From: Thermodesulfovibrionales bacterium
GTDB lineage: Bacteria; Nitrospirota; Thermodesulfovibrionia; Thermodesulfovibrionales; SM23-35
Length of the DNA stretch: 62,486 bases
NCBI GenBank assembly: GCA_030019415.1
Contig: JASEEX010000007.1
Coordinates: 1 to 62,486 of the forward strand
Direction: 5' to 3'
The translations under genes were made by a program, and so were the position numbers. Shown piece after piece: positions 4,692 through 59,261 of this stretch (position 1 is its first letter; the number at the start of each line of letters is the position of its first letter). Below the pieces are notes generated by a model, which did not search any database, was not told where the DNA came from, and worked only from the letters and a program-made list of their open reading frames with translations.

Positions 4692-5042
4692 ATGAAAATA
4701 CTCGTTGTTGATGATGACCTGCATATCCAGAGGCTTTATAAAGAAGAGCTAACTGAGGAGGGCTATGAAGTTGTCGTAGCAGCTAATGGGGCTGAGGCAA
4801 TGGAAATGTTTGAGAGAGAGAGTCCCGACCTTGTTACGCTCGATATACGATTGCCTGACGCAGATGGTATCTATCTCCTGAGGCAGATGAAGGAGAAGAG
4901 ACCGAAGTTGCCCATTGTTATGTCTACGGCTTATGATTACAGGAATGATTTTTCTGTATGGGCCTCAGAGGCTTATATTGTTAAGTCATCAGACCTCGTT
5001 GAACTTAAGTCCATGATAAGAAAGTTGCTCGGCAGGGAATAA
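4692..5042 (+). CDS. stand-alone response regulator receiver
   Basis: 116 aa CheY-like protein with VVDDD acidic pocket, LDIRLPDADG phospho-acceptor context and no output domain. Confidence 0.85.
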   Translation: MKILVVDDDLHIQRLYKEELTEEGYEVVVAANGAEAMEMFERESPDLVTLDIRLPDADGIYLLRQMKEKRPKLPIVMSTAYDYRNDFSVWASEAYIVKSSDLVELKSMIRKLLGRE

Positions 5043-7018
5043 TGTCCCGAAAAATCTATCTTGAAGGCGCACCTTTAAATGAGGCGCTGACAAAGTGGTT
5101 TAGAAAGCTTGATTCTGAAGGGGTTGGAAGACCTCTTTCGGGTGAGACAATTAGGGTTGAGGATTCTCTCGGAAGGATTACTGCAAAGGCAGTTATCGCA
5201 AAAATCTCGTCTCCCTTCTATCACTCATCAGCAATGGACGGCTACGCCGTCAGGTTCGCTGATACATTCAGCGCCTCGGAAACTAATCCCAGGAGACTCA
5301 GGATAGGCGAGCAGGCGATGTATATTGATACAGGTGACCCCATGCCTGATGGGTTTAATGCAGTGATAATGATAGAGGATGTGAATATAGTTACCAGTCG
5401 GCAGTCAAAGAGTCAAGAGTCAATAGTCACTACTCAGAAGACTCACGACTCATTCATTGAAATAATTGCGCCTGTAACACCCTGGCAGAATGTGAGGGTA
5501 ATTGGTGAAGACATCGTGGCAACGGAGTTGATAATCCCTGAGAATCATAGGATAAGACCTGTTGATATAGGTGCAATGCTTGCAGGTGGGCATACGGAGA
5601 TTGTGGTCAGGAGGAGGCCAAGGGTAGTCATTATACCTACAGGAACGGAGATTGTAGAGCCGGGCACCGAATTAAAGAAGGGTGACATTATCGAATACAA
5701 CTCGAGAATTCTGAGTGGTCTTGTCTCTGAATGGGGTGGAGAGCCAGTGAGATTCAGGATAGTGCCTGACAGGCCTGATGAAATCAGAAAAGCGATACTT
5801 GAAGCCCTTGACATGGGAGATTTGATTGTTGTTAATGCCGGTGCATCTGCTGGTTCAGAGGATTTTACCGCAAAGGCTATGGAAGAGCTTGGAGAAATGA
5901 TGCTTCACGGGGTTAATATAAAGCCGGGCAAGCCTGTTATCCTCGGATGGGTGAAAGGAAAACCTGTGCTTGGAATCCCTGGCTATCCTGTATCTGCATA
6001 TATAACATTCCAGTTGTTTGCAAAGCCTCTTATCTACAGATGGCAGGGCCTTGAGGTTGAAGAACCGGAATTACTCAGGGCCAAGATTTCAAGGCAGGTT
6101 GCATCCACCCTTGGGCATGAGGAATTCCTGAGGGTAAAGGTAGGGAAGGTAGGAGATAATTTTATAGCAACTCCCGTTAGCCGCGGGGCAGGTGTGCTTA
6201 TGTCTCTGGTGCGCGCTGATGGCTTTGTCCGGATACCTGCCATGTCTGAAGGTATCGGGGCAGGCACAGAGGTGGATGTGGAGCTAATGAGATCTAAAGG
6301 TGATATTGAAAATACGATTGTCTGTATTGGAAGCCACGACAATGCCCTTGATCTGCTTGCCAATATATTGAAGAAGAGATATCCGAAGTTTTCCCTTTCA
6401 TCAGCCCATGTTGGCTCCATGGGTGGTCTTATGGCATTGAAAAAGGGCGAAGCACATTTAGCAGGAACGCACCTGCTTGATGGGGAGACAGGGGATTACA
6501 ATGTACCATTTATAAAAAGACTCCTTTCTAATAAAAGGATTATACTTGTAAATCTTGTCTATAGAGAGCAAGGCCTTCTTGTGCTAAAAGGCAATCCCAA
6601 AAACATAAAAGGATTTGAGGATTTAACAAGAGATGACGTTGTTTTCGTCAACAGACAGTCAGGTGCAGGGACGAGGCTTCTTACTGACAAATGCTTGAGG
6701 GAACTTGGTATAAACCCGAAAGATGTTAAAGGCTACGAAAGGGAAGAATACACGCACATGGGTGTAGCATCAGCAGTGCTTACTGGGATTGCAGACACAG
6801 GTCTTGCAATCCTTGCATCTGCGAGGGCCCTGGGGCTTGATTTTATCCCTGTTGCAAAAGAGAGGTATGACCTTGCTATATCTCATGAATTCTTCAAGAC
6901 TGAGATGCTACAGTATCTCCTGAAGATTATAAAAGAAGATGCTGAATTCAGGGAGATGGTGATAGGGCTTGGAGGATATGATATATCAGACATGGGAGAG
7001 GTGATGTGTGAAGCATGA
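5042..7018 (+). CDS. moeA: molybdopterin molybdotransferase MoeA fused to a C-terminal periplasmic-binding-protein-like domain
   Basis: MoeA-like N-terminal ~410 aa (SSAMDGYAV, GEDI, IPGYPVS), then a ~240 aa PBP-like tail. TAATG overlap with the receiver gene. Confidence 0.8.
   Translation: MSRKIYLEGAPLNEALTKWFRKLDSEGVGRPLSGETIRVEDSLGRITAKAVIAKISSPFYHSSAMDGYAVRFADTFSASETNPRRLRIGEQAMYIDTGDPMPDGFNAVIMIEDVNIVTSRQSKSQESIVTTQKTHDSFIEIIAPVTPWQNVRVIGEDIVATELIIPENHRIRPVDIGAMLAGGHTEIVVRRRPRVVIIPTGTEIVEPGTELKKGDIIEYNSRILSGLVSEWGGEPVRFRIVPDRPDEIRKAILEALDMGDLIVVNAGASAGSEDFTAKAMEELGEMMLHGVNIKPGKPVILGWVKGKPVLGIPGYPVSAYITFQLFAKPLIYRWQGLEVEEPELLRAKISRQVASTLGHEEFLRVKVGKVGDNFIATPVSRGAGVLMSLVRADGFVRIPAMSEGIGAGTEVDVELMRSKGDIENTIVCIGSHDNALDLLANILKKRYPKFSLSSAHVGSMGGLMALKKGEAHLAGTHLLDGETGDYNVPFIKRLLSNKRIILVNLVYREQGLLVLKGNPKNIKGFEDLTRDDVVFVNRQSGAGTRLLTDKCLRELGINPKDVKGYEREEYTHMGVASAVLTGIADTGLAILASARALGLDFIPVAKERYDLAISHEFFKTEMLQYLLKIIKEDAEFREMVIGLGGYDISDMGEVMCEA
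5395..5455. repeat. AGTCA/GAGTC-repeat imperfect palindrome inserted in-frame inside moeA
   Basis: cagtcggcagtcaaagagtcaagagtcaatagtcac...gactcacgactc. gagtcaagagtc pairs with gactcacgactc at 10 of 12. It encodes the low-complexity TSRQSKSQESIVTTQKTHDS. Confidence 0.55.
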
Positions 7019-12351: not shown

Positions 12352-12537
12352 TAATATATCATAAAAGGAGATTTTACCCCCGCACCTTTGACTTATTTTT
12401 TAGTAATCTCCCCTTACCCCTCTTTAAAAAAGAGGGGAATAGAGTAAAGGGGGCTGGGGATTACTAATTTTCATTATCTTTGTGTCTTTTTAGACATGAA
12501 TGTTCCCTTTTTTAAAGGGCTTGTGTAATATGAATAT

Positions 12538-12909
12538 ATGAGGAAGATTTTTTTGCTATTGTTTTTACTCCTCTTCCCAGTGGTCTCCTATTCCCAGCCT
12601 TTAATATTGTTCGATACAGACAGATATGATTTTGGGACAATAAATGTAGGTGAAATGATCGAATATACATTTGAGTTTACAAATGCAGGTGATGAAGAGC
12701 TCGTCATAGAAAAACTGATTCCCTCCTGAGGGTGCACAGCGATGATGGCTAGTTTGAGCCGCCTGAAGCCTGGGGAAAAAGGAAAGATTATTGCAAAGAT
12801 TGATATAAAGGGCAGGGTGGGCTCTATCTCTAAAAGCGTACGGGTTTTCTCCAATGACCCTAAAAGGCCTGCGGTTACCCTTGGTCTAAAGGCACTGATA
12901 AGACAGTGA
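12538..12909 (+). CDS. DUF1573-family secreted protein with in-frame TGA (candidate selenocysteine) at 12727-12729
   Basis: Signal peptide. [28 protein letters not shown]...PS-TGA-GCT aligns with the family SCGCT motif. The frame stays open and family-like (KPGEKGKI...VRVFSNDP) to the TGA at 12907-12909. Confidence 0.6.
12744..12763 (+). promoter_or_regulatory. candidate SECIS-like stem-loop downstream of the in-frame TGA
   Basis: gatggct-agtttg-agccgcc. The core is 4 bp (ggct/agcc) extended by a G-U pair and a G-C pair across one mismatch. The apical loop contains GU and starts 24 nt after the U of UGA. The structure is weak. Confidence 0.3.
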
Positions 12910-13640
12910 ACCGTTCTATTTTGTTCATATGGATGTGGGTATTACTTACTATTTGCTGCTTGCTATTTGCAACTTGCCACTCATTAATGGCATCGGACCC
13001 TTATCTACAGAAGCGTCAGGCCATGGTAGAAAATGATATAAAGGGCAGAGGTATAAAAGATAAAAGGGTTCTTGAGGTAATGGGGAAGATTCCGAGGCAC
13101 CTTTTTGTGGATGAACATCTGAGGGACAGGGCATATGCAGATTATCCGCTACCGATAGGAGAGGGACAGACAATTTCTCAGCCCTATGTCGTTTCCCTTA
13201 TGACGGAGGCATTAATGTTAAGGCCCACTGACAGGGTGCTTGAAATAGGCACAGGCTCAGGTTACCAGGCAGCGGTACTGGCAGAAATAGTAAAAGAGGT
13301 TTATACGATAGAGATAAGGAAATCCCTTGCAGACATGGCGGCTAAGAGGCTTAAAGACCTCGGTTATAAGAATGTGAAGGTGAAACATGCTGACGGTTAT
13401 TCTGGATGGGAAGAATATGCTTCCTTCGATGCAATAATCATAACCGCCGCAGCAAACCATATCCCCCCGCCCTTGATTAAACAACTTAAGGAGGGGGGAA
13501 GACTCATAATCCCTCTTGGAAGCACAGTCTATTATCAGGTACTGACCCTCGTGGCAAAGAGGAAGGGTGAACTCGATGTCGAGCAGATAGGACCTGTGGC
13601 CTTCGTGCCAATGGTTGGAGAGGCACAAAGGAGAAAATGA
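12906..13640 (+). CDS. pcm: protein-L-isoaspartate O-methyltransferase with N-terminal hydrophobic extension
   Basis: QTISQPYVV and [17 protein letters not shown]-binding motifs. The GTG start overlaps the upstream stop (GTGA), and the true start may be internal. Confidence 0.85.
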
Positions 13641-13649
13641 GATATACTA

Positions 13650-13765
13650 TGACAGGAGACAACCCTTTCGCTTATTCTCGCCCCGCACTATGACATAGTG
13701 CGGGGCTCCGAGGTAAATTCTGTCTTCGACAGAATTTAAAGCCGCTCAAGGGTTGTCTCCTGTCA
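13650..13765. repeat. nested palindromic element (outer 18-bp stem enclosing two hairpins) between convergent genes
   Basis: Outer tgacaggagacaaccctt/aagggttgtctcctgtca is perfect. Inner gccccgcactatg-a-catagtgcggggc (13 bp) and aaattctgtc-ttc-gacagaattt (10 bp). Confidence 0.75.
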
Positions 13766-16168
13766 TTCTGATCTCTTTAAAAAACTCTGCAGTGTTATAA
13801 AAGCCATCATATATGTTAGTGCACCTATCCATAAGACCATTTTAAACCCTATGACCATTGCTGACATAATAGTAAGGATGGGTGCAATGACCGAGAAGCA
13901 ACCATTTATCGCCCATGCCCAGGGGATTAATGATTCATTCTTCTCACCGAGGATTTTCAGACCTGCGGGGAAGGGGATGCCCATGAGAAGGCCGAGCGGC
14001 ATGAGGATGAAGAGTACTAAAATAATCTTGACTGGAATTGAATACGGAGAAATTATATCCGAGACGGCTGGAAAAAGGATGCTGTAAACAATAATAAGAA
14101 AGGAGATTACAATGGCTACAGAGGGCCTCCTTAAACCTGAAACCCTGTGACTCAATAGACTCCCGATACCCGAACTTATGAGGATTGATGTGAGGACGGT
14201 AGCGACTGCATAGGATGGGTTTTCAAGGGGAAGGATGATCTTCTGGATCAGAGATATTTCCACAAACATAAATCCAATGCCGAGAAAGGCAAAGTAAGGA
14301 AGGAAGCTCCTTCCCCTGTCATTGCGAGCCCCGTATTTAATACGGGGCGAAGCAATCTCGTCTTTCTTTCTTGAAAAAGCGGGAAGAAGTACGAGGACAA
14401 GGCTTAAAAACATTACCTGCATGAAGATCACTGGAAGGATGTATCCTTCTTCTATAAAATACTGCCATTTTTCTCCCATAATTTTATAGATCTCCTTGAT
14501 GTTTTTGAGTTTGAGATAATAATGAAAAAATGGGCTGTCATCACGGACAGGGCTTATATCAAAGATATAATCATGTATAAACCCTGTACGTGTTTCGGGA
14601 TTCAGGATATTTTTAAAGGCAGTGAAATATTCATTTGAAGGCATTCGAATATAGACGTTCGCCTCCTCTTCTTTGATGCCCGGATAGTGTATTAAATCGA
14701 ACCGTCTGTCTTTTGAAAACTCCTTGATAGCCTCTATCTCATTAAGGGTAAAGGGTGATCTTTTTATGAGAATACATATACTTCCCCAACTTCGAATAGC
14801 TACAACCTGTTTTTCCATATCTTTTATCCCGAGCTCCTCCATAGCTGTAATAATGGTATTTATGAGTCTCAATTCTATTCGTGGAGGCGGTAATATAAAC
14901 AGGTTTATGCTCAAAAGCCCTTCTGGTTTTAGATGGCCTATATATTCCGTGAATGCCTCAACAGTAGACCCGTAGTCCTCTGATATTCCAAAAGAACCAG
15001 AGGGTGCTGAGCCCATCAATGAGATGTCGATAATATCGAATTTCTTGTAACCTGACTTGAGCCATGACCTTCCAAGCCCTGACCATGTATTGTCCCTGTA
15101 AATGTTGCCAGAGAAGTCTTTAAATTCATCCCTGATGATTTCTATCAAGAGAGGATTGGACTCGACCTTGTAGAGATTTTTTGAGCTGTAATAAGCTGCA
15201 ACGATGACTTGAAGACCTCCTTTTGGGTCGAGGATTAATACATCCTCCAAATTGCCTATTTCATAGGGGAGTGAAGATGGTAGAAATCTGATAAATCTCA
15301 GGGGGTCCGTGGGGGAAACAGAGTTTCCCCCACGCACTATAGCATTTATCTCGCTTCCATCTATTGAAAACCCTATCTGTTCAGGGAGTTTATCAAGATA
15401 CCTGAGGCTCAGACCAGGGGCAAAACGCACCGCAGGGCTCTTAAATGTGTCTATCCTTGAGAAGGGACTGAAATAGGTCTTTAAATGTTCTGCTTCAGGA
15501 TATCTCAGGGCTACCTGAAGCCCCTTGTATGGAGACATCCTGAGGTTAATAAATACAGGTTGAAAGAACAGAGCAGAAAGGTTAAGTAAGATTAATACCA
15601 GAGAGATTGCCTTCAGCCTTTTCTCACTGATAATAAATGATGTTATGAGTACGATTGAAGAGAGGATAAAAACAGCCTTATCAGGCCCTGTGATTGTCAT
15701 GAGATACAGGATTCCTATCGAGCCTATACCTGCACCGAGAAGGTCTGCACCATAAATCATACCTGATTTCTCGCTTATACAGGAGAATGCTGTAGCGATG
15801 ATCAATCCTGTAAAGAAAAATGGCATCGAGAGTGTTACGTAGTAGAGACCGATATAAAGCAACTGTATCCTTGACCAAGAAAGCCTCACTGGGTCAAAGG
15901 GTATCTGATTTGAAAGAAGATAACTCAGAGATATTCCGGTACCGAGCAACAGGCTATAAATACCGATATTGGATAGGCTTCTAAGTTTAGGATAGAGGGA
16001 CAGTAATGTCCCGCTTGCACCGATGCCAAGCATGGCAATACTTATTATCATAAAAGCAAAGTGGTACCAGAGGGAGACAGAAAATATCCTCGTGAGGGCT
16101 ATCTCATAGGCAAGGCTCGAAAAGGAGCACAGGAATATTACTAAGAATATCCTTGGGTCTCTATACAT
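13763..16168 (-). CDS. polytopic membrane protein fused to a spermidine-synthase-like methyltransferase-fold domain
   Basis: N- and C-terminal multi-TM blocks. The central region (DIIDISLMG...EAFTEYIGHLKPEGLLSI) resembles aminopropyltransferases. It contains two palindromic inserts. Confidence 0.55.
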   Translation of the reverse strand: MYRDPRIFLVIFLCSFSSLAYEIALTRIFSVSLWYHFAFMIISIAMLGIGASGTLLSLYPKLRSLSNIGIYSLLLGTGISLSYLLSNQIPFDPVRLSWSRIQLLYIGLYYVTLSMPFFFTGLIIATAFSCISEKSGMIYGADLLGAGIGSIGILYLMTITGPDKAVFILSSIVLITSFIISEKRLKAISLVLILLNLSALFFQPVFINLRMSPYKGLQVALRYPEAEHLKTYFSPFSRIDTFKSPAVRFAPGLSLRYLDKLPEQIGFSIDGSEINAIVRGGNSVSPTDPLRFIRFLPSSLPYEIGNLEDVLILDPKGGLQVIVAAYYSSKNLYKVESNPLLIEIIRDEFKDFSGNIYRDNTWSGLGRSWLKSGYKKFDIIDISLMGSAPSGSFGISEDYGSTVEAFTEYIGHLKPEGLLSINLFILPPPRIELRLINTIITAMEELGIKDMEKQVVAIRSWGSICILIKRSPFTLNEIEAIKEFSKDRRFDLIHYPGIKEEEANVYIRMPSNEYFTAFKNILNPETRTGFIHDYIFDISPVRDDSPFFHYYLKLKNIKEIYKIMGEKWQYFIEEGYILPVIFMQVMFLSLVLVLLPAFSRKKDEIASPRIKYGARNDRGRSFLPYFAFLGIGFMFVEISLIQKIILPLENPSYAVATVLTSILISSGIGSLLSHRVSGLRRPSVAIVISFLIIVYSILFPAVSDIISPYSIPVKIILVLFILMPLGLLMGIPFPAGLKILGEKNESLIPWAWAINGCFSVIAPILTIMSAMVIGFKMVLWIGALTYMMAFITLQSFLKRSE
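14318..14357. repeat. GTCATTGCGAG...GAAGCAATC hairpin element inside a CDS
   Basis: gtcattgcgagccccgtatttaatacggggcgaagcaatc. The inner stem ccccgta/tacgggg is perfect. It is translated as part of ...ASPRIKYGARNDRG... in the minus-strand gene. Confidence 0.6.
15308..15334. repeat. 12-bp-arm perfect palindrome CGTGGGGGAAAC-aga-GTTTCCCCCACG inside a CDS
   Basis: Read directly. A near-identical copy lies at 17146-17172 in a different gene, and both are followed by cact. Confidence 0.8.
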
Positions 16169-35415: not shown

Positions 35416-36297
35416 TTGACGGATATAAAGGAAAATATTATTGGAAAATTGAAAGCTTTACCCATTAAGGTGAAGGCTGCTGCTATTTATGGCTCTTGGG
35501 CAAAGGGTGCACAGAAGAAAGACTCAGACCTTGATATATTGTTGATTTCAGATGAGATTAATCCAAGAAGGCATAAAAGGGGTAGAAAAATTGCTGCCAT
35601 CAAAGAATGGCTTTTATTGGACTTTCCATTGGATATTTTGTTACTGACAACAAAAGAGTGTCTCTCAAATTTCAAAAATCATAATCCCCTCTTTCTGGAT
35701 ATTGCATGGGAGGGTATCATTCTGTTGGATGAGGATGATTTCTTGAAATCTTTGATTGAAGAAACGAGGGTGTACATATCCGAGAGAGGGATCAAGAAAC
35801 TTGACGATGGTTGGAAATTTCCCGTACTTGATAGAAAGGCAGTGTTACTTTCTAAGGTGAGTAATGAGGACTTCGCAATAGCAATGCTTATAGATGGAGA
35901 AAGGGATTTTAAGATTGGCACGAGCATTATGAATAATGGTTATTATGACAAAGCGGTATATCATTTTCAGCAGTCTGTAGAGAAAGCGGTAAAGGCTGTC
36001 TTGATATGTTTCGGGATATTCAAAAAGACTCATTTTGTTGGAGAGATACTGAATAAAGAACTTGGGGAAAGAAAACTCAATAAAGACTGGAGGGAAAAAC
36101 TCATGCAGATCGCAAGGGTGAGTTCTGAAGTAGAGCCAGAGGTAACCTGGAGCCGTTACCCAGGAATGGACGAAGGTACTTTATGGATTCCATATAAAGA
36201 ATATACTGTTGATGATGCAAACGAGGTTAAAGAGAAATGCGGGAAAGCAATCAGGGCAGCAAGGGAATTTATTGAATGGTGGTTCGGAGATAAGTAG
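35416..36297 (+). CDS. fused nucleotidyltransferase (MNT-like) plus HEPN domain protein
   Basis: N-terminal GSWAKG...DSDLDILL NTase motif. C-terminal HEPN-like helices (YYDKAVYHFQQSVEKAVKAVL ... SRYPG). TTG start with an AAGGA RBS. Confidence 0.7.
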   Translation: MTDIKENIIGKLKALPIKVKAAAIYGSWAKGAQKKDSDLDILLISDEINPRRHKRGRKIAAIKEWLLLDFPLDILLLTTKECLSNFKNHNPLFLDIAWEGIILLDEDDFLKSLIEETRVYISERGIKKLDDGWKFPVLDRKAVLLSKVSNEDFAIAMLIDGERDFKIGTSIMNNGYYDKAVYHFQQSVEKAVKAVLICFGIFKKTHFVGEILNKELGERKLNKDWREKLMQIARVSSEVEPEVTWSRYPGMDEGTLWIPYKEYTVDDANEVKEKCGKAIRAAREFIEWWFGDK

Positions 36298-36746: not shown

Positions 36747-37085
36747 ATGCCTTTTGATACCTCTTTATGGGAAAAGATTATCGAGAGGAAATATACTGAG
36801 AGGGAAAAGATAAGGATAGAGACCCTTGATACTTTGATCATGAAACTCAGGGATTATTTCACCCACAAAAAGGTGAAAGGGGTTTATATAATAGGCTCAG
36901 TTTTAAAAGAAGGGGCGTTTTATGATTTTTCAGATATAGATATTGCTGTAGATGGTTTTTCAGATGATTATTTCAGGGTTTCAGCAGAGCTTGAGGATCT
37001 TGTTAGTAGAGAAATAGAGTTGATTGAGCTTGAGAAATGTAAATTTAAAGAGAGTATTGAAAAATACGGCTTGAGGGTGTTATGA
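36747..37085 (+). CDS. MNT-type nucleotidyltransferase (antitoxin-like)
   Basis: GSVLKEG...FSDIDIAV NTase motif, 112 aa. It overlaps the next ORF (ATGA). Confidence 0.75.
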   Translation: MPFDTSLWEKIIERKYTEREKIRIETLDTLIMKLRDYFTHKKVKGVYIIGSVLKEGAFYDFSDIDIAVDGFSDDYFRVSAELEDLVSREIELIELEKCKFKESIEKYGLRVL

Positions 37086-37549
37086 AGATAGAAGCTATTG
37101 CATTGTTAATGGGCTATTTAGCAGATCAGAAAGAGGAGATAGGTAAACTCTTTGGAGAGATAAAAAACACCGAGCCTGCAGGCAATGTGAAAACAGTTTA
37201 CCTGGGCTATTTCCTGCATAACCTTTATTGTGCCTTTGAAGACTTATTTAAAGAGGTAGCAAGGACCTTTGAAAATCAGATAAATGACTCCTCCATATAC
37301 CACAGAGAACTTCTAAAGAGAATGACTCTTGAAGTTCCAGGAATAAGACCGCCATTTTTATCGAAAGAGAGTTATAAAATCCTTGATGAATTGAGAAGAT
37401 TTAGACACACCTTTAGACATGCTTACACATATGAACTTGACTCAACAAAGGTCAACGATCTAAAGCAGAAAACCCTCTTGGTCTGGGACAATATAGAATC
37501 AGATATAAGAAACTTTGAGCAGTTTTTAAAAGACAAAATGAAGGAGTAA
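37082..37549 (+). CDS. HEPN/HepT-like protein (toxin-like partner)
   Basis: LRRFRHTFRHAY contains RxxxxH-type motifs. It is all-helical, 155 aa, and translationally coupled to the MNT gene. Confidence 0.55.
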   Translation: MKIEAIALLMGYLADQKEEIGKLFGEIKNTEPAGNVKTVYLGYFLHNLYCAFEDLFKEVARTFENQINDSSIYHRELLKRMTLEVPGIRPPFLSKESYKILDELRRFRHTFRHAYTYELDSTKVNDLKQKTLLVWDNIESDIRNFEQFLKDKMKE

Positions 37550-38265: not shown

Positions 38266-39945
38266 ATGCTTATAGGTGAAATTCTGCTAAACCTCTTCGG
38301 AGTAAAGGCAGAAGATATAAACAAGGCATTAGATATCCAGAAGGAGGTCGGAGGTTATATAGGGCAAATTCTTATTCAGACAGGTACGATCACCGAAACG
38401 CAACTACTCCAAGCCCTTTCAGCACAGCTTAAGCTGCCTGTTTTAAATAGCGAAAATAGCAATTCATCCACAGAAGATATCTTATCTTTCGTAGAGGATA
38501 AGTTAGATATCAATTTTGTTGTTGAGAATGGATTTGTCCCCATTGGGATAGACCATCAATCCCGCATTTTGAGCTTCGTAACAAATGACCCACTAAAAAA
38601 TCCTATCATTAATTATGTTGCAAAGTCCATGGATTACGATATACATCTGATATTGGCCCCTGAAAAAACCATCAAGGATCTTTCAAAAAAATACATTCTG
38701 GATTCTATGGATGGTGTTGTTTCCTTAGGCGTTGAGGAGAGCGTTGAGAGACTGAAAGATATGGCATTTGAGGCACCGGTTATTAAGTACCTGAACAGCA
38801 TGTTGAGCCGTGCCGTAGAGCTGACTGCATCAGATGTCCATATAGAACCTTCTGAGAATAGATATAGGGTGAGGTTTAGAATAGACGGGGTACTGCATGA
38901 TATTGATTCACTGAAAGAGGAATTTTATCTTGCACTGGTATCAAGGATTAAGCTCCTTTCTGGTTTAGATATTGCTGAAAGGAGATTGCCCCAGGATGGG
39001 AAGTTTACCACAAAGATAGGCTCCACCTTCCTTGATTTAAGAATTTCAACAATACCAATCCTCAAAGGAGAAGATGTGGTAATAAGACTCCTATACAGAG
39101 GTAGACTCAGCTTTGACTTGAGGCATCTCGGGCAGATGGATGACCACTATACTATTATCAGGAATATGATCTCAAAGCCATACGGTATGATACTCGTAAC
39201 AGGGCCAACAGGTTCAGGAAAGACTACAACCCTTTACTCCATGCTCACATATCTAAATAACGATGAGAAAAAGATAGTAACCATAGAGGATCCCGTGGAA
39301 TACCAGCTTGGGGGTCTAAACCAACTACAGGTAAAGAGCGATGTAGGATTAACCTTTGCAAGTGCCCTCAGATCTATCCTGAGACATGACCCGGACATAA
39401 TAATGGTTGGTGAGATAAGGGACAAGGAAACAGCGAGGATATCCATCCAGTCTGCCCTTACAGGTCATCTTGTTCTTTCCACATTACACACCAACGATGC
39501 AGCAAGCAGCCTCTTCAGGCTCTTAGACATGGGAATCGAAGATTATTTGATTAATGCCTCTGTTATTGGTATTATTGCCCAGCGTATCATCAGATTGAAC
39601 TGCCCTCACTGTAGCACTGAAGACTATCTCTCAGAGGATATCATAAAACAATACAGGATATATGAGATCCATGATAAATACCGTGCACTTATTGGTAACA
39701 TAAATTTCAGGAGAGGTAAGGGATGTTCCAAATGCGTTGGCACTGGATACAGAGGCCGCACTGCCATATTTGAGCTATTTGAATATGAGGAGGATCTAAA
39801 GAAGATATTCATTAGAATGCATTCCCTTGAGGCTATAAGAGACTCCATTGTCTCTTACCCTTATTTCAGGACATTAAGAGATGATGGGATACTGAAGGTA
39901 ATAGACGGCCGCACAACAATTGAAGAGGTCTTGAGGGTTACTTGA
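38266..39945 (+). CDS. gspE: type II secretion / type IV pilus assembly ATPase
   Basis: Walker A GPTGSGKTTT, Asp box, Walker B, His box (LSTLHTNDA), tetracysteine CPHC...CSKC, and an N-terminal T2SSE_N-like repeat. Confidence 0.9.
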   Translation: MLIGEILLNLFGVKAEDINKALDIQKEVGGYIGQILIQTGTITETQLLQALSAQLKLPVLNSENSNSSTEDILSFVEDKLDINFVVENGFVPIGIDHQSRILSFVTNDPLKNPIINYVAKSMDYDIHLILAPEKTIKDLSKKYILDSMDGVVSLGVEESVERLKDMAFEAPVIKYLNSMLSRAVELTASDVHIEPSENRYRVRFRIDGVLHDIDSLKEEFYLALVSRIKLLSGLDIAERRLPQDGKFTTKIGSTFLDLRISTIPILKGEDVVIRLLYRGRLSFDLRHLGQMDDHYTIIRNMISKPYGMILVTGPTGSGKTTTLYSMLTYLNNDEKKIVTIEDPVEYQLGGLNQLQVKSDVGLTFASALRSILRHDPDIIMVGEIRDKETARISIQSALTGHLVLSTLHTNDAASSLFRLLDMGIEDYLINASVIGIIAQRIIRLNCPHCSTEDYLSEDIIKQYRIYEIHDKYRALIGNINFRRGKGCSKCVGTGYRGRTAIFELFEYEEDLKKIFIRMHSLEAIRDSIVSYPYFRTLRDDGILKVIDGRTTIEEVLRVT

Positions 39946-41144
39946 TGAATTTCCAATACAGGGGGGTGGATATTTCAGGCAAGGAACTGAAGGGGACATT
40001 ATCGGCTATTAACCCCGATGATGCTATGTCAAGGCTAAGGGGGATGGGGCTTACGATTATATATTTAGCCGAAAAGAAAGGCCTTTTAGAGAAGAGGCCC
40101 TTTGGCAAGAAAAGGATAACAGACACGGATCTGTATAATCTCTCGAAGGAATTAAGTGTCCTTCTAAATGCCGGCATAAATATAGATCATGCCCTGGACA
40201 TACTTTTAGGCTCTACCTCAAAAACATCTCTCAAGGATACACTGGCGCAGATTCTCAGGGACATAAAAGGTGGGAAGACCCTGTCGCAGGCGTTTGCAGA
40301 CACTCAAAAGTTTAACCCACTCATAAATGTGATGATAAAGGTTGGAGAGAATGTGGGTGACATCAGAGCTGCCTTTGAAAATATCGCACAGTATATACAT
40401 TTTCAGATACAGTTTAAAAACGAGATAAGAAACGCAATGGCATATCCTATCTTCCTTGTATTTGCAAGCATCGTAATTCTATTTGCTATATTCAAGTTAA
40501 TTATCCCGAGATTTTTCAGCATATTTGGTCAGGAAAGTGCCTCTTTACCCTTTGTCTCGAGGGTACTGTATTCCATCAGCAATTTCATAAACTCCACCAA
40601 TATATTCTTTTTCCTCTTGGGCATTGGCCTGATAGGCATATCTTTAAGATATATGAATCTGAAAAAAATACTTCAAGGGGTCTATTCATACCTCGTATAC
40701 ATCCCGTTTTTAAAAAACCTGATCATACACCTTGAGCTTTCGAAGTTTTCATACTCCATGTACACAATGCTGAAAAGTGGCGTTGAGTTTATAAATGCCC
40801 TGATATTGTCAAAGGATGTTATACAAAACACTATGATGAAGGTAGAAATCGAAAGAACTGAACAACAGATTAAAGAGGGAAAGGGCATTGCAGATGTATT
40901 CTCTTACGTAAGTTTCATGCCGCCCATGATGCATAGCATGCTCAGGGTTGGTGAAACAAGTGGTAATCTAAGGGATATATTCTTTGAATTTTATATGGTC
41001 TTTGATGAGAGGTTCAAGAATTCTATGAGAAGGATACTTGCGCTCGTGGAACCAATAGTTATTACTATAATGGGTGTTGTCGTTGGGATTATTGTTATAT
41101 CCTTGATACTCACGGTTATGAGTGTCAGCAACATAAAGTTGTGA
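39942..41144 (+). CDS. gspF: type II secretion inner-membrane platform protein
   Basis: 400 aa, duplicated GspF domain architecture with 3 TM segments. Confidence 0.9.
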   Translation: MMNFQYRGVDISGKELKGTLSAINPDDAMSRLRGMGLTIIYLAEKKGLLEKRPFGKKRITDTDLYNLSKELSVLLNAGINIDHALDILLGSTSKTSLKDTLAQILRDIKGGKTLSQAFADTQKFNPLINVMIKVGENVGDIRAAFENIAQYIHFQIQFKNEIRNAMAYPIFLVFASIVILFAIFKLIIPRFFSIFGQESASLPFVSRVLYSISNFINSTNIFFFLLGIGLIGISLRYMNLKKILQGVYSYLVYIPFLKNLIIHLELSKFSYSMYTMLKSGVEFINALILSKDVIQNTMMKVEIERTEQQIKEGKGIADVFSYVSFMPPMMHSMLRVGETSGNLRDIFFEFYMVFDERFKNSMRRILALVEPIVITIMGVVVGIIVISLILTVMSVSNIKL

Positions 41145-41150
41145 ACAGGG

Positions 41151-41309
41151 GATTTACCCCGCACCAGCAGAAAGCTACGGGTGTAAACCTGTGGATGAAA
41201 GGTAAAAATATCCCGAGTGGTGCGGGATTTACCCCGCACCAGCAGAAAGCTACGGGTGTAAACCTGTGGATGAAAGGTAAAAATATCCCGAGTGGTGCGG
41301 GATTTACCC
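41151..41309 (+). repeat. 75-bp tandem repeat, 2.1 copies, containing the pseudopilin start codon and leader
   Basis: Units 41151-41225 and 41226-41300 read as identical, and the third copy stops after gatttaccc. Each unit begins TTTACCCCGCACC and ends GGTGCGG (internal inverted repeat). Confidence 0.9.
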
Positions 41310-41683
41310 TCGTCGAGATCCTTATTGTTATCAGCATCGTTGGAATTATGTTGTCTGTTGTCATGCCCGTTTCTTATTCCATGTATAAGACTTATCAAGA
41401 ATCGCTTGAAGCAGAGAAGGTACTGATCTTCCTCTCATCTTTAAAAAGAGAGTCTTTTCTTTATAGCAAGGAGAGCCTTGTAGATACCAAAGACGGTAAG
41501 CTGGTAGTGGACGGTAGTGAAAAAAGGGAGTTTAAGGATATATTTATCCATGCAGAAAGACCCATACTATTTTATAAAAACGGCACGACCTCTGGCGGCA
41601 AATTACGCTTAAACATGAAGAGTAATATATTTCTCATTGGTATTGATCCCCCCTTAGGAGAGATGAGACTAACAAGACAGTGA
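41270..41683 (+). CDS. GspH-like minor pseudopilin
   Basis: MKGKNIPSGAG/FTLVEILIV prepilin signature. The ATG at 41270 is preferred over the GTG at 41141. Confidence 0.65.
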   Translation: MKGKNIPSGAGFTLVEILIVISIVGIMLSVVMPVSYSMYKTYQESLEAEKVLIFLSSLKRESFLYSKESLVDTKDGKLVVDGSEKREFKDIFIHAERPILFYKNGTTSGGKLRLNMKSNIFLIGIDPPLGEMRLTRQ

Positions 41684-42144
41684 TGATCACGATAAAAAGA
41701 AAAATGTTTAACAGTCCATTGCTTAGAGAAAACAAAGGCTTTCTTGTCATAGAGATACTTATAGCAGGACTCATCCTGACAGCAAGCATTGCTGCAACCA
41801 TGTATCTCTTCAGGGTCGGGTTTCAGCATCTGGGGAGGGCAGATGTTTCCAATATCCTTTCATCCAAACTCTCTCAGTCAATAAATCTCATAAAAACCTT
41901 TGACCTCGAGAAAAAGAGCGGAATAGAGGATATCGGAGACGGTGTAACCCTTGCGTGGGAGGCAAGGCTCTTAAACAGTACAAGGCCAGTGATGTATACA
42001 GCTGAAGGAAGTATCCCATCTCCCCATGAGCTTTATTTGTACAGGGTGAGTTTCCAGTTAATATATAAGGATGCTAAAAGGGATTATGAGACCAATATCT
42101 TCAGCTATAAGAGGCTGGTATCCGCTTCAGAGATGCTTTTCTAA
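41680..42144 (+). CDS. GspI-like minor pseudopilin
   Basis: ...ENKG/FLVIEILIAGLIL prepilin-like N-terminus with Glu at +5. Confidence 0.55.
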   Translation: MMITIKRKMFNSPLLRENKGFLVIEILIAGLILTASIAATMYLFRVGFQHLGRADVSNILSSKLSQSINLIKTFDLEKKSGIEDIGDGVTLAWEARLLNSTRPVMYTAEGSIPSPHELYLYRVSFQLIYKDAKRDYETNIFSYKRLVSASEMLF

Positions 42145-42805
42145 TAAGGGTTATACCATCCTGGAGGTTCTTATAGCCATTGCTATATTCACTGCGATGG
42201 TCACTATTGCCTCAATGGCATTGAATCAAGGATTAGGACAATACCATAGACTGATGGAGAGGGGTATTAATTTTTGGGACAATGCAAAATACCTCTGGAT
42301 AAACAAAAGCCTCAATTCAGCAGCAGATTATTATGTATATTCCCGGGATAGCGGGTGGTTTCCATACTTTCGTGGGAATCAGGAGCTTATCTCTTATGTC
42401 TCATCATCACCACTCGCTACAGGTGAACCTGTTGTTGTGTGGATAAGAAACGAGCGCGGGGACGACGGGAACCGCTCCATTGTTTATTATGAACTGCCTG
42501 TTTACGCAAAAAATATGCAAGAAATAGAGAGACAATACCTTTTTGGAGACTTTAAGAAGGGTAACTCCGTAACGCTCCTTAAGGGTATAGGGGATGTCAG
42601 CATTAAATTCTATGGCTATGACCTGCTCGAAAGGCAGTGGTCATGGACAGGGGACTTTGATGGAAGTAAAAGAAAAGTCCTCCCACAAGCGATCAGGATT
42701 GATTATAAAGATATGGGCACAGGGGAGAGAAAAACAGTAATCCTCGGTGTAAATACAAACTCCTTGAATAAGATGATTTACAATGAGATATACCCCCCTG
42801 AATAA
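42086..42805 (+). CDS. GspJ-like minor pseudopilin
   Basis: ...SNKG/YTILEVLIAIAIF prepilin-like N-terminus. 42086 is the nearest in-frame ATG. Confidence 0.55.
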   Translation: MRPISSAIRGWYPLQRCFSNKGYTILEVLIAIAIFTAMVTIASMALNQGLGQYHRLMERGINFWDNAKYLWINKSLNSAADYYVYSRDSGWFPYFRGNQELISYVSSSPLATGEPVVVWIRNERGDDGNRSIVYYELPVYAKNMQEIERQYLFGDFKKGNSVTLLKGIGDVSIKFYGYDLLERQWSWTGDFDGSKRKVLPQAIRIDYKDMGTGERKTVILGVNTNSLNKMIYNEIYPPE

Positions 42806-43703
42806 AGAAAATGGCTCCGCAACACTCCTGACAATCTTCATATCAGCCATTATGATAACCATCGGAATCGGCTTTAACTGGCTTGTCAAGGAGCATCTCA
42901 AGGCGGCAGAAGGGCTCAGGGTAAAATCAGAGGCGATGTTAAGTGCAAAATCCACATTTGATACCCTTGTTTATCTTCTCCTTTCGGGTAAAAAGACACA
43001 GAAGGAATACCTATTCCAGAACGGCGAGGAACTTTTGGGTATCAGAAGTATTCCATTAAATGGCAATGAGGTTACACTAAAAGATGTGAAGATAAGCACC
43101 AGAGACAGTAATGGCATGCTGTCATTGAGCGCTCTGAATGAGTCAGCAATGAAGAGGCTGGTAGAATTGTTTTCAGGAGAAGATGCAACTGGTATAATAG
43201 AAAGTTATCTTGACTGGATTGATAGAGACAGGCTTGTCAGGCTCAATGGGGCGGAAGAATTTTACTATAACTCAAAGGGGCTTCCTTATGTCCCGAGAGA
43301 TTATTTTATCCAATATAAGGAGGAATTCACACTTGTAAAGGGGATGAACAGAGAATTGTATGAAAAGATAGAACCCTATATCACAATTCTTCCATCATTT
43401 GGTTTTAACCCGAATACAGCATCAGAGGAAGTCTTAATGGCATATCTTGATATAGACAGAGATGTAGTTAAATTCCTCAAGGATTACGTTGCCCAGAAGC
43501 CGATCTCATCAGACATGGAATTATTTTCCCTGGTGGGGAAGAGGATTGTTTATGCGGAGGGTATTTATTTTTATCCTTCCCCCTTTATGGAAATAACAAT
43601 AAAAGCTGGCATTCCTGAGACTGTCTATACCATCAATGCAGGTATTGATACCCGTCAGAACCTCACCTTTCCATACAGTGTGATGTACTGGAAGGAAGAA
43701 TGA
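42783..43703 (+). CDS. GspK-like minor pseudopilin
   Basis: Hydrophobic N-terminus without Glu at +5. NPNTASEEVL helix-hairpin-helix-like motif typical of GspK. Confidence 0.6.
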   Translation: MRYTPLNKENGSATLLTIFISAIMITIGIGFNWLVKEHLKAAEGLRVKSEAMLSAKSTFDTLVYLLLSGKKTQKEYLFQNGEELLGIRSIPLNGNEVTLKDVKISTRDSNGMLSLSALNESAMKRLVELFSGEDATGIIESYLDWIDRDRLVRLNGAEEFYYNSKGLPYVPRDYFIQYKEEFTLVKGMNRELYEKIEPYITILPSFGFNPNTASEEVLMAYLDIDRDVVKFLKDYVAQKPISSDMELFSLVGKRIVYAEGIYFYPSPFMEITIKAGIPETVYTINAGIDTRQNLTFPYSVMYWKEE

Positions 43704-43707
43704 AGAT

Positions 43708-44874
43708 ATGCTTGTATCCTACTGGCATAAGAATGGTATAGAAGCTTACAGGGTGAAGAACTCTGAATTGATTAGGATCGCCTCAGGCAATTTAGATACA
43801 CTCAAGCCTTTCACCGGATTCGGTAAAAAGGTCATGATTGTTGCAAGGGAGCTCCTCCTGTATACAAGAAAGAGATACCCCCCTACTACACGGGAAAACA
43901 TAGCCAAAGCTATTTCTATAGAAATCAGGGATCTTTTCCCACTCGAAAGCCCTGCCTACTTTTTCAGGGTATCAGAACAGACTGCTACCTATAGCCTTGC
44001 GGATATATGGGCATGGGATTGTTCTCAATACGAAGGGGTAAGAAAGGTCTTTCCGTTTACCCATGTGCTGCCTGAGGACATGGCATTTATCTCTGATGAG
44101 CCAGAGATAAGCATCTTTGAACACGATGGGTTGAAACACTTGGTCGCATCTAACAAAAATGGATTTATTGGTGGATTATCTCTCAGGACCCTCAGAGATG
44201 ATGCAATAGAGATGTTTTTAAGGAGTCTTGGAAGACACTCCCTTGAGATCAAGAGGATAAGGTTGTATTGTGCCCTGGAAAATTTTTCTTCAGAAAATTT
44301 TTCGGGGACCCTTCCTGTGGTGAATGAGCAGCAAAAGGATTACCCGCTATGTCTGAAAAACATAAACAGATTAGTGCTAAAGGACTTCAGATATGCACGT
44401 GAAATTCCTTTTACCCCGAGCATAGAATTATTACTGAGGTTAATAATCTATCTCATGATTATCTACTCAATCTCTCTTTTTATTACCATCGAAAATTATG
44501 ACAGTGCTATCCTGGAGACATCAAAGAGGCTTGATAGTCTGACAAAGGAACTAGCGGGTGTAGGACAGATAAAAGGCAGCGACGAGCATTCTGATACAAT
44601 AAACGAACTTATTGAAAAACGGAAATCAAGGATAGGCCCCCTTACCGTAATGGATGCACTTGCGGAATTCATTCCGGAGGGCACATCTATAACGAGGATG
44701 ATATTGAACGAAAACAACCTTGAACTTTCTCTATCTTCAAAGGATCCCCTCAATGTTATAAGGAACCTTTCAGGTGCGAGGTGCGTCAAAACTGTGAAAC
44801 TCAAAGGTGCACCCTATAAGGCACAGGATTCATATAACTTTCTCCTGACACTGGAGCTGGTACCATGCGGCTGA
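43708..44874 (+). CDS. GspL-like assembly protein (cytoplasmic domain, one TM, periplasmic domain)
   Basis: 388 aa with a single central TM (LLLRLIIYLMIIYSISLFITI). Call based on position in the operon. Confidence 0.5.
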   Translation: MLVSYWHKNGIEAYRVKNSELIRIASGNLDTLKPFTGFGKKVMIVARELLLYTRKRYPPTTRENIAKAISIEIRDLFPLESPAYFFRVSEQTATYSLADIWAWDCSQYEGVRKVFPFTHVLPEDMAFISDEPEISIFEHDGLKHLVASNKNGFIGGLSLRTLRDDAIEMFLRSLGRHSLEIKRIRLYCALENFSSENFSGTLPVVNEQQKDYPLCLKNINRLVLKDFRYAREIPFTPSIELLLRLIIYLMIIYSISLFITIENYDSAILETSKRLDSLTKELAGVGQIKGSDEHSDTINELIEKRKSRIGPLTVMDALAEFIPEGTSITRMILNENNLELSLSSKDPLNVIRNLSGARCVKTVKLKGAPYKAQDSYNFLLTLELVPCG

Positions 44875-45416
44875 TGGGTCAACTTAAAAGGGAAAGATTG
44901 AAAACAGCGGGGATTTATCTGGTTATCATCCTATTTGTACTAAAATTTGTCCTGATCCCTTTAAGCCACTCTGCAAAGGACAAAAAAACCCTTTTGAATG
45001 AATATACTGAAACATACCGGACAAAGGCCTTAATAAAGGAAAGACAGCTCCATACAGATAAGACGAAAGATGAGTCTATCTCTGAGGAGAGAAAGAGACT
45101 CCTTGATCCTTTGTATACAAAGGATTCTGCTGCCTCTGTAATACAGTCAGAAATCCTCATGTCTGCTATAAAAAGTGCTGAAAAGAATGAAATGGGCATT
45201 CTTAACTTTGAACTCCCTGATACCATCTCAGGAAAGAACCTGAGCGAGATATCCGTCCTTGTGAGATTAAAAGGCATGCCTAAAGGATTGATAGGTCTCT
45301 TGAAGGAGATAGGTAATATGAAGAGACCTGTGGACATCAAGGGTCTTCAGATAGATAAAAGTAGGGACGAATTCGTCTATACCCTTACACTGACCACATA
45401 CAGGATCGAAAGATGA
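44865..45416 (+). CDS. GspM/PilO-like bitopic protein
   Basis: N-terminal TM then about 140 aa periplasmic. Call based on operon position. Confidence 0.45.
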   Translation: MRLMGQLKRERLKTAGIYLVIILFVLKFVLIPLSHSAKDKKTLLNEYTETYRTKALIKERQLHTDKTKDESISEERKRLLDPLYTKDSAASVIQSEILMSAIKSAEKNEMGILNFELPDTISGKNLSEISVLVRLKGMPKGLIGLLKEIGNMKRPVDIKGLQIDKSRDEFVYTLTLTTYRIER

Positions 45417-45892
45417 TGAAAAAATATCTGATGGACATTTTATGCATAGCTATATTTGGATTGTCTATTCCCCTGCTGGTGGTAGAGAAACCAGAGATAA
45501 GCTACAGTACACTAATTAGCAACGCCAGGACGGCAGAACCTGAAAAAAAGAAGGATATGACAGAAACTATTACACGGGTTGAAAAACAGAGGGTCAGGCA
45601 ATATAAGCATATAGAAGAACGCAACATCTTTTCTCCGGATGGTGTTTACAGGATTGTTAAAGGCGAAGCCCCTCCTCCTGAAAATCCATACCGCTTTATT
45701 GGTGTGCTTAGAGGAAAGGATAAAAGGGCTGTATTTATGGATTACACAGGGGAGATTATTACATTAAAACCTGGGGAAAAGCTTGGGGACGGATCTGTTA
45801 TAAGGGATATAGATATCCTTTCTGTAAAATTAAAGAAAGGGAAGAAGGAAACAGAGCTCAGGATATTCAATCTTGACAGGGAGAAGAAGTAA
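45413..45892 (+). CDS. GspC/PilP-like secretin-interacting protein
   Basis: N-terminal TM, RNIFSP motif and a C-terminal beta-rich domain. It lies directly upstream of the secretin. Confidence 0.45.
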   Translation: MMKKYLMDILCIAIFGLSIPLLVVEKPEISYSTLISNARTAEPEKKKDMTETITRVEKQRVRQYKHIEERNIFSPDGVYRIVKGEAPPPENPYRFIGVLRGKDKRAVFMDYTGEIITLKPGEKLGDGSVIRDIDILSVKLKKGKKETELRIFNLDREKK

Positions 45893-45896
45893 GGAC

Positions 45897-55618: not shown

Positions 55619-55624
55619 CTTGAA

Positions 55625-55778
55625 ATGAATAAACTTTTTTCATTTTCGGTACTCGTCCTGAGGCCATAAAGATGGCTCCACTGATATTAAAGGCAAGTGC
55701 TAACGCCTCATTTAATGTCGGGCTCTGTGCTACAGGACATCACGATGAGATGCTCCAACAGGTTTTGGATTTCTCAGG
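55625..55778 (+). pseudogene. frameshifted remnant of the wecB 5' end
   Basis: atgaataaacttttttcattttcggtactcgtcctgaggccat... is colinear with 56758-56910 of intact wecB. One missing nt near the start gives an early TAA. Confidence 0.85.
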
Positions 55779-56014
55779 AAAGATGTCTGAGTTATGCTCT
55801 TTCAACTAAGAACTATTCGTTCCCCGAAATTTGGATAGGAGATTAAACGCATTAATTTACCTTGTCATTAGATTACTTGGAAGGTAAATGGCAACTTTCT
55901 ACCAACGGATCTGGGTACTCTGTTTAGGGAGATACACTAAAGCCATCTGTGATATAATATAATCTACTTTACGTATAAGTACTGAAATAAATCACAGAAC
56001 AATGAGGAAACCCT

Positions 56015-56350
56015 ATGTCAGGGGGTAAGAAGTCATATAGCGATACCATAGTTGAGAGATTTTTATCTATGATTTCACCTTTAGGGGAAAATATAAAGGA
56101 GATGTATCTATTTGGTTCAAGATGTCGGGATGATTGGCGACCTGATTCAGATTTCGATTTTTTAATTGTTGTTAATAGAAAGGACAGAGAGTTTACCAGT
56201 AAACTATATGATGCAGTCATGTACATACTCCTTGATACAGGCAGGTTAATATCCCTTAAGATTTTCACAGCCTCTGAGTTTAACCGCCTGAAGTCAATTC
56301 CTACCCCTTTCATGCATAGTGTCACTAAGGAGGGTATAAGGCTTATTTAA
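56015..56350 (+). CDS. MNT-type nucleotidyltransferase
   Basis: LFGSRCRDDWRPDSDFDFLIVV NTase motif, 111 aa. Confidence 0.75.
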   Translation: MSGGKKSYSDTIVERFLSMISPLGENIKEMYLFGSRCRDDWRPDSDFDFLIVVNRKDREFTSKLYDAVMYILLDTGRLISLKIFTASEFNRLKSIPTPFMHSVTKEGIRLI

Positions 56351-56351
56351 A

Positions 56352-56519
56352 AAGGATATCGGGAAATATCTTGCTAATCTGAAGGATGAAAGGGAGAGTG
56401 GAGATTATGAGGTATTTTCTTATATAGACAGAGAGACTGCAGAAACCGCAATAGAGGAAGCAAGAGAGTTTATTAGAGAAAGTAAGGCATATTTGAGAAA
56501 CATTACCTTAATAGATTAG
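56352..56519 (+). pseudogene. C-terminal fragment of a HEPN-domain gene (no start codon)
   Basis: Manual translation KDIGKYLANLKDERESGDYEVFSYIDRETAETAIEEAREFIRESKAYLRNITLID*. It looks like a HEPN C-terminal half (R..GDY ... EA..F). The frame is closed 4 codons upstream with no initiator. Confidence 0.6.
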
Positions 56520-56581
56520 TTCTGAACTTTTTAGATATTAATACAAAAGTATTAAGTAAATTGGCATAAACATATAGTGTT

Positions 56582-56651
56582 GTCATTCCCGCGCAGGCGG
56601 GAATCCAGTTTTATCAGTATTCTTCTGGATTCCTGCTTTTGCAGGAATGAC
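56582..56651. repeat. inverted pair of GTCATTCC-hairpin-GGAATCCAG units (MITE-like)
   Basis: gtcattcccgcgcaggcgggaatccag ... ctggattcctgcttttgcaggaatgac. Confidence 0.7.
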
Positions 56652-56754
56652 GAGAAATGTAATATTATTAATTAATTTCGTTTGTATTAAATATACAAAG
56701 GCCTTTTGCAAGGTCTTGTTTTTGTACCTGATTCGGGTTTAATATTGTAGAGAA

Positions 56755-59139: not shown

Positions 59140-59261
59140 ATAATCTGAATTCATAAGCAATATAAAAAATATAAACATCATGACCTATAGAAAGAGCAAG
59201 GGTTTGGATACCATCTGTGACGGTATTTTGAAGGGTACCGATTTTATTTTTCCCTAAAAAT

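Follow-up and report, generated by a model that had tools for sequence, protein, structure and literature searches.

OS_HP2 was reported as one of six new selenoprotein families from the metagenome of the Olavius algarvensis symbionts (Zhang & Gladyshev 2007, PMC1976440). The selenoprotein tables of two later reviews include a "DUF1573 domain-containing protein, PF07610, motif UGC" (PMC9312934, PMC13188914), and in both of them this entry sits where OS_HP2 sits in the original table. The family is modelled in NCBIfam as NF041425, "OS_HP2 family (seleno)protein". The capacity to use selenocysteine (Sec) is also documented for the lineage considered here. Thermodesulfovibrio genomes carry complete selA, selB, selC and selD sets plus selC*, a tRNA(Cys) (PMC5389517), selC has been found within selB in Nitrospirae (PMC13188914), and Thermodesulfovibrionia MAGs encode another SECIS-bearing selenoprotein, MccSep (PMC13510729).

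The gene described here lies within a window of 62,486 nt, by which we mean the whole stretch of DNA that was analysed, from a Thermodesulfovibrionales bacterium. A reading frame beginning at ATG 12538 on the plus strand halts at a TGA (12727–12729) and is then open for another 59 codons, up to a second TGA (12907–12909). The initial annotation had noted the ORF at 12538–12729, the 59 further codons and the end at 12907–12909, all of which are present in the sequence. Taken as a single gene, 12538–12909 (+) has 123 codons plus the terminal TGA, with the internal TGA as codon 64. When Cys is written at this codon, the 123-aa joined product matches Pfam DUF1573 (PF07610) with 82.9 bits against a cut-off of 26.1, and residues 24–112 align to profile positions 2–90 of 98, so that both sides of the TGA are covered by a single DUF1573 (PapD-like/HYDIN-type Ig) domain. 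The open length past the stop is unremarkable when considered alone, as frames of at least 59 codons stay open past the stop in 7/43 genes of the window (P of about 0.02 from composition); the signal beyond chance is the continuity of the domain together with conservation in 80 loci, described below.

The position of the TGA within the domain is specific. In an alignment with 11 Cys-type proteins, the S-U-G-C-T of the product matches S-C-G-C-T column for column, confirming the initial proposal, which had placed the TGA opposite the first motif Cys. The in-frame UGA (12727–12729, +), predicted to be read as Sec (U64), would therefore replace the first Cys of C-G-C, and the TGC at 12733–12735 (+) encodes Cys66, its partner residue in U-G-C, which is invariant in 15 orthologues. 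At the other end of the protein, sequence inspection identified a signal-peptide-like N-terminus (12538–12594, +) consisting of MRK, 13 hydrophobic residues and S-Y-S/Q-P, an arrangement that is conserved in the orthologues. It resembles a type I signal peptide, with cleavage likely after S-Y-S, directly before QP. The pattern FP[AV][VI][SC][YF][SA]QP is common to the orthologues, and was itself among the patterns used to retrieve them.

Considering these features together with the comparative evidence below, we assign a probability of roughly 0.88 to the reading of 12538–12909 as one gene for a small exported DUF1573 selenoprotein, whose UGA at 12727–12729 would be read as Sec by means of a downstream hairpin and SelB and whose role would be redox- or metal-related. 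That the UGA is recoded and the gene a real selenoprotein gene is held with at least this confidence, and the biochemical role with less. The initial annotation had left Sec and a nonsense pseudogene side by side and had favoured read-through; the invariant TGA, the coding pattern, the hairpin and the Cys homologues all support Sec.

In comparison with OS_HP2, the present gene shares PF07610, the predicted Sec position (U-G-C where Cys-type proteins have C-G-C) and a SECIS-like hairpin shortly after the UGA, but it comes from a different background: OS_HP2 is from deltaproteobacterial Olavius symbionts, whereas the present clade belongs to Nitrospirota and is mostly Thermodesulfovibrionia. The window product scores 70.6 bits against NF041425, below the cut-off of 100. 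Members of the clade score 69–81 bits, which is no better than the 67–87 bits of ordinary Cys-type DUF1573 proteins from several phyla, and the Nitrospirota clade therefore falls outside the curated OS_HP2 subfamily. As no named OS_HP2 member appeared in the top 120 of 2,041 profile-search hits, the relationship to OS_HP2 rests on HMM scores. Judged on these scores, the Nitrospirota clade is a separate DUF1573 lineage with predicted Sec at the same position as OS_HP2. The initial annotation had doubted that DUF1573 is a known selenoprotein family, which was mistaken, since the family is already catalogued (OS_HP2, NF041425), though obscure. The gene thus adds a member, so far mis-annotated, to a known selenoprotein family.

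Homologues of the gene are found in protein databases in a fragmented form. The protein search returned two full-length close homologues carrying W at the motif position (P0001 and P0002), two N-terminal fragments terminating exactly at ...EKLVPS (P0003 and P0004) and C-terminal fragments beginning a few residues past the motif (P0005–P0007 and P0009); more distant proteins from this search carry PSCGCT. The DNA was fetched for nine loci, and in all nine the identical codon, an in-frame TGA, is present with the frame open past it. A scan of genomes (one genome per species) and a separate scan of metagenomes, which contributed 70 loci, extended this observation to 80/80 close orthologous loci with TGA at codon 64, representing 57 distinct sequences (where distinct means differing over the TGA and the next 60 nt). 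In the genome scan, close relatives (60–89% identical) all have TGA and occur only in MAGs labelled Nitrospirota, Thermodesulfovibrionia/-ales or Nitrospiraceae; the closest MAG, JBFMDQ01, encodes a protein with 89% identity. Where one of the 80 loci comes from a named genome, that genome is Nitrospirota, in most cases a Thermodesulfovibrionia MAG. No close orthologue carrying Cys was found among the 80 loci. By contrast, TGC or TGT is present in 20/20 motif copies of homologues from other phyla; those in the genome scan (Bacteroidota, Ignavibacteriales, Nitrospinota, Verrucomicrobiota, Planctomycetota and others) are 29–41% identical. The initial annotation had suggested a search for TGA-containing orthologues and had raised the case in which close relatives have TGC and this copy alone carries TGA; with TGA in every one of the 80 close loci, that case does not apply.

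There were two irregular loci. L091:868–1236 is a metagenomic orthologue with an additional Gly (VVPS-TGA-GGC-TGC), which would read U-G-G-C rather than U-G-C and does not fit the conserved hairpin core. L020:2401–2830, from the MAG MFD00709.bin.1.4, has two frame changes (0→1→2) with the TGA and the hairpin retained, and is either an assembly error or a decaying copy.

For a single sequence, an in-frame stop within a domain looks like a nonsense pseudogene or a sequencing error, in which the TGA would be a true stop and the downstream frame a decaying remnant, and long post-stop frames are indeed not rare (the 7/43 genes mentioned above). However, 80 independent loci, drawn from many samples and MAGs, share this TGA, and the sequence downstream of it evolves as coding sequence. 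For this, the codons of 15 gap-free orthologues were examined. Past the TGA, the first, second and third codon positions have entropies of 0.43, 0.34 and 0.96, versus 0.54, 0.32 and 1.08 ahead of it, and there are 1529/1754 pairwise synonymous/non-synonymous codon differences downstream and 1476/1865 upstream, with substitution dominated by third positions on both sides. The TGA itself is invariant in these 15 orthologues. The Gly at +1 is an invariant residue encoded by GGG, GGA or GGT, and the Cys at +2 is likewise invariant, encoded by TGC in 8 and TGT in 7. As Cys66 is kept through TGC/TGT variation, the codons right after the UGA are translated. Such retention of the residues directly past the stop through synonymous change is not what a decaying remnant would display, and the pseudogene reading, which we consider practically without credence, is refuted by the 80/80 conservation of the TGA and by the downstream coding pattern.

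The same codons bear on the possibility of two small genes, the first stopping at 12729 and the second restarting at the ATG/GTG within 12742–12747 with help from GAGG at 12728–12731, the products being a secreted peptide of 63 aa and a cytoplasmic one of 55 aa. In favour of it, two ORFs are what gene callers predict, every orthologue has ATG or GTG at codon +6, and UGAGG is similar to a Shine-Dalgarno sequence. Nevertheless, the break would fall within a turn of a single beta-sandwich, whose second half would lack a signal peptide, and the residues of the four intervening codons (G-C-A/T/S-A) are kept through synonymous changes, so that these codons are translated. The alternation of ATG and GTG at +6 is accounted for by its pairing with hairpin column 36. 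Protein-level selection on the codons ahead of the candidate restart excludes stop-and-restart along with the pseudogene. The split-gene reading was rejected on this ground, and we regard two separate products as very improbable.

An organism-wide reassignment of UGA to Trp or Gly would also keep the frame open, and the deposition of P0001 and P0002 with W at the motif position seems to speak for it. The stops of the 43 long ORFs of the window (TGA 21, TAA 20, TAG 2) show the opposite, as TGA is the commonest stop and the code is therefore not reassigned. ORFs of the window that end in TGA match Pfam full-length, and the DUF1573 gene itself also ends in TGA. The other TGA-split ORF pairs that were checked against Pfam (ROK/signal peptidase, recN, ribH) proved to be adjacent or complete ordinary genes, ROK and signal peptidase being separate full-length genes. 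In addition, homologues elsewhere have Cys at this residue and neither Trp nor Gly. With TGA serving as the ordinary stop of 21/43 window genes, reassignment is refuted and retains next to no probability in our assessment. As for the two deposited proteins (P0001, L003:82–456; P0002, L004:784–1137), they are JGI calls on two short contigs in which the Sec TGA was rendered as Trp, apparently through the choice of an alternative genetic code for both contigs. The Trp reading in P0001 and P0002 is an annotation artefact that hides selenoproteins.

We then considered the hairpin downstream of the UGA. The bacterial SECIS element, as in E. coli fdhF with its loop G23/U24, is a hairpin inside the coding sequence that starts about 15 nt past the UGA and has G-U in its apical loop. 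The SECIS-like hairpin of the present gene (12744–12763, +), identified from its fold, its consensus structure and covariation, has these same properties. Its stem is formed by 12744–12750 with 12757–12763, with an A.C mismatch at 12745/12762 in the window copy, and its 6-nt apical loop, AGUUUG, occupies 12751–12756, which places the loop G at position 26 when the U of UGA is counted as 1. The loop G-U at positions 26–27 lies one codon further out than G23/U24 of fdhF, and this position, together with a stem start about 15 nt after the UGA, would be within the range accepted by bSECISearch. Unlike the elements of fdhF and bSECISearch, the hairpin has a short stem (6–7 bp), a loop of 6 nt and no bulged U, and the window copy is thermodynamically weak. 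Alone it folds with −5.4 kcal/mol, and its 64-nt context is no more stable than shuffled sequences (z = +1.2). The copy in the closest relative, L010, is weaker still (−3.7 kcal/mol), and those of other relatives reach down to −11.5 kcal/mol. Rfam gave no match to a SECIS or any other family at either gathering or permissive thresholds. As folding energy was uninformative, comparative analysis was used for the SECIS instead.

Across 16 sequences, the apical helix (columns 20–24/31–35) is paired in 97.5% of cells and shows one compensatory double change, U-A to C-G in L014. Covariation was not significant in these 16 sequences, and significance was reached only with the 57 distinct sequences. 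In the larger set, the 7-bp helix (columns 18–24/31–37) is paired in 90% of cells, and covariation is seen at pairs 18–37, 19–36 and 24–31. In pair 19–36, which is G-C in 25 sequences, A-U in 19 and G-U in 6, the first position of a Val/Met codon is tied to the third, synonymous position of an Arg/His codon lying 17 nt away. There are 28 double-sided changes versus 11.8 ± 5.5 in shuffles, with 0/500 shuffles reaching 28, though the relatedness of the sequences inflates this statistic. When the 3' partners are slid, pairing falls from 87.5% to 15–50%. We take the covariation of the hairpin as support, not proof.

Codon choice within the hairpin points the same way. The loop follows the consensus A-G-U-U-Y-R, in which A, G and U never vary. 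In 57/57 sequences the loop G-U comes from the Ser codon AGU, and the Ala codon before it is only GCU or GCC, whereas Cys-type genes with this Ala-Ser peptide draw on all four Ala codons and on four Ser codons. The hairpin-forming synonymous codons are fixed in the TGA clade only, and local MFE averages −8.7 kcal/mol for TGA-type and −5.1 kcal/mol for Cys-type genes. The weak hairpin with GU in its loop that the initial annotation had pointed out at 12744–12763 therefore exists, and it is conserved and covaries in the orthologues. By the standard bacterial mechanism, this hairpin would display its conserved A-G-U-U loop inside the coding sequence about 20 nt past the UGA and recruit SelB with Sec-tRNA(Sec).

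A search of the 62-kb window (43 ORFs against Pfam, and a tRNA scan) found no selA, selB, selC or selD, no tRNA of any kind and no second selenoprotein gene, and a tRNA scan of 13 related loci found neither tRNA-Sec nor selC*. The presence of selC* in the lineage raises the alternative that the UGA is recoded through the SECIS and SelB with Cys, rather than Sec, being inserted by the selC* tRNA(Cys), either always or under selenium scarcity. Genes for selC* tRNA(Cys) have been found in Thermodesulfovibrio and in contigs assigned to Nitrospirae, and in an E. coli assay the form with a UCA anticodon reads opal codons as Cys (PMC5389517). Moreover, in all other phyla Cys serves at this site. We nonetheless consider this alternative improbable, as no selC* or other tRNA is present in the window or the 13 related loci, and every selC*-bearing genome in that study also had the full Sec apparatus (PMC5389517). 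Furthermore, the UGA and the hairpin are retained in 57 distinct sequences although a single change from UGA to UGC or UGU would give Cys, which argues that Sec itself is selected.

On the reading as an exported selenoprotein, the gene would encode a 123-residue precursor with a signal peptide and a mature Ig-like beta-sandwich domain of about 104 residues. Its structure was examined using an AlphaFold model made on the orthologue P0001, which is 62% identical to the full window product and has W at the Sec site. The model is one eight-strand beta-sandwich (pLDDT 89.5), with residues 1–20 at low pLDDT and outside the fold. In this model, the positions of S63, U64 and G65 form a 3-residue turn between strands 55–62 and 66–71, and C66 opens the next strand. 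U64-G65-C66 would hence occupy a tight inter-strand turn, which could bring Sec and Cys near enough for a selenylsulfide. Foldseek matched the model to PapD-like/ASH domains of HYDIN, the VesB Ig domain and 2qsv (TM 0.72), the last being a Porphyromonas gingivalis protein of unknown function. These fold neighbours are structural or without known function. A sequence search of the PDB gave no match, and we found no functional study or experiment on any DUF1573 protein in the literature.

Sec/Cys pairs generally mark redox-active sites, and several C-x-C motifs are redox motifs, such as C-G-C in Erv2, C-P-C in Mia40 and the CGC peptide that mimics PDI. As with U-G-C, these motifs place two chalcogen residues one apart on a flexible turn, where a strained redox-active bond is possible. 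Their proteins differ from the present one in fold and compartment and have no sequence relationship to it, so that the comparison is one of mechanism only. The proposed redox or metal role draws on the Sec/Cys rule and the C-x-C analogy. By this analogy, U-G-C is probably a periplasmic selenylsulfide redox site or a soft-metal/metalloid site. The likely job of the protein would be periplasmic thiol/selenol-disulfide exchange or the binding of soft metals or metalloids, and Cys-type relatives may do the same through C-G-C. The Cys-type DUF1573 proteins (e.g., 2qsv) share the fold, the invariant N-x-G ... S-C-G-C-T ... P-G motif set and export, but they are 29–46% identical and have Cys for Sec, often a lipobox-like signal or two or more domains, and neither the conserved hairpin nor the fixed codons. 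The Bacteroidota Cys-type homologues, for instance, have lipobox-like signals in place of the type I-like signal.

In the public records examined, the gene is always split into two fragments or given Trp and is never annotated as a selenoprotein. An NCBI MAG copy (L001), for example, is split into 75-aa and 62-aa genes, and no full-length NCBI record of the Nitrospirota clade appeared in either protein search (in the second, among the top 120 of 2,041 hits). NF041425 misses the whole Nitrospirota clade; a lower cut-off or a model of the clade would fix dozens of MAG annotations, and the corrected annotation would improve selenoproteome counts for Thermodesulfovibrionia. The clade adds a well-supported predicted exported selenoprotein (57 distinct sequences with a covarying SECIS) to the DUF1573 family. 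The strict retention of Sec also marks the C-G-C turn of DUF1573 as the functional site, which gives a concrete handle on a domain with thousands of members.

The next gene is pcm (protein-L-isoaspartate O-methyltransferase; 12906–13640, +; PF01135, 221.8 bits), whose start codon, GTG 12906, forms a GTGA overlap with the end of the selenoprotein gene, as the initial annotation had described. The surrounding order of genes is conserved: dapB, a minus-strand uvrA-like gene, the Sec-DUF1573 gene, a variable segment and then a sigma-54 activator. In about 23 loci, the window among them, the variable segment consists of pcm and a minus-strand 801-aa gene; in about 26 loci EamA comes directly after the Sec-DUF1573 gene. 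The coupling to pcm that had been put forward initially is hence frequent but neither universal nor a defining feature. An alternative view sees the gene as part of a Nitrospirota lineage that uses only Sec at this site, perhaps gained independently of OS_HP2, and that may form a repair/redox module with the overlapping, signal-peptide-bearing PCMT, the module being proposed for about half of the genomes. In a variant of it, the UGA would be read as Sec or Cys depending on selenium supply, through the selC* tRNA(Cys). We consider this combination unlikely.

Several other features of the window were noted. The PCMT (12906–13640, +) has a hydrophobic N-terminal extension of about 30 residues, with the Pfam domain starting at residue 36, which suggests from sequence an exported or membrane-anchored protein-repair methyltransferase. 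The 801-aa ORF beside it (13763–16168, −) is conserved next to pcm with 53–89% identity in 12 related loci and has no Pfam or NCBIfam match. Upstream of the selenoprotein gene, in the 186-nt divergent intergenic region between it and the uvrA-like gene, there is a perfect 9-bp inverted repeat at 12417–12437, CCCCTCTTT-AAA-AAAGAGGGG, which may be an operator or another regulatory hairpin. A fused nucleotidyltransferase-HEPN protein (35416–36297, +) lies near a separate HepT-like protein (37082–37549, +), and the two look like toxin-antitoxin-type modules. A type II secretion/type IV pilus-like operon at 38266–47954 (+) includes a GspE ATPase, GspF, a GspK-like protein and a secretin, and six of its ORFs have no Pfam match at E ≤ 1e-5. 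Further along, a 1557-aa protein (50945–55618, +) fuses several glycosyltransferase domains (GT4, GT2), and the glycosyltransferase cluster at 52000–60000 has a GC content of 34–36% versus 42–45% elsewhere, so it could be an acquired polysaccharide island. Lastly, the MoeA (molybdopterin molybdenumtransferase) encoded at 5042–7018 (+) is fused to a C-terminal PBP-like domain, PF12727.
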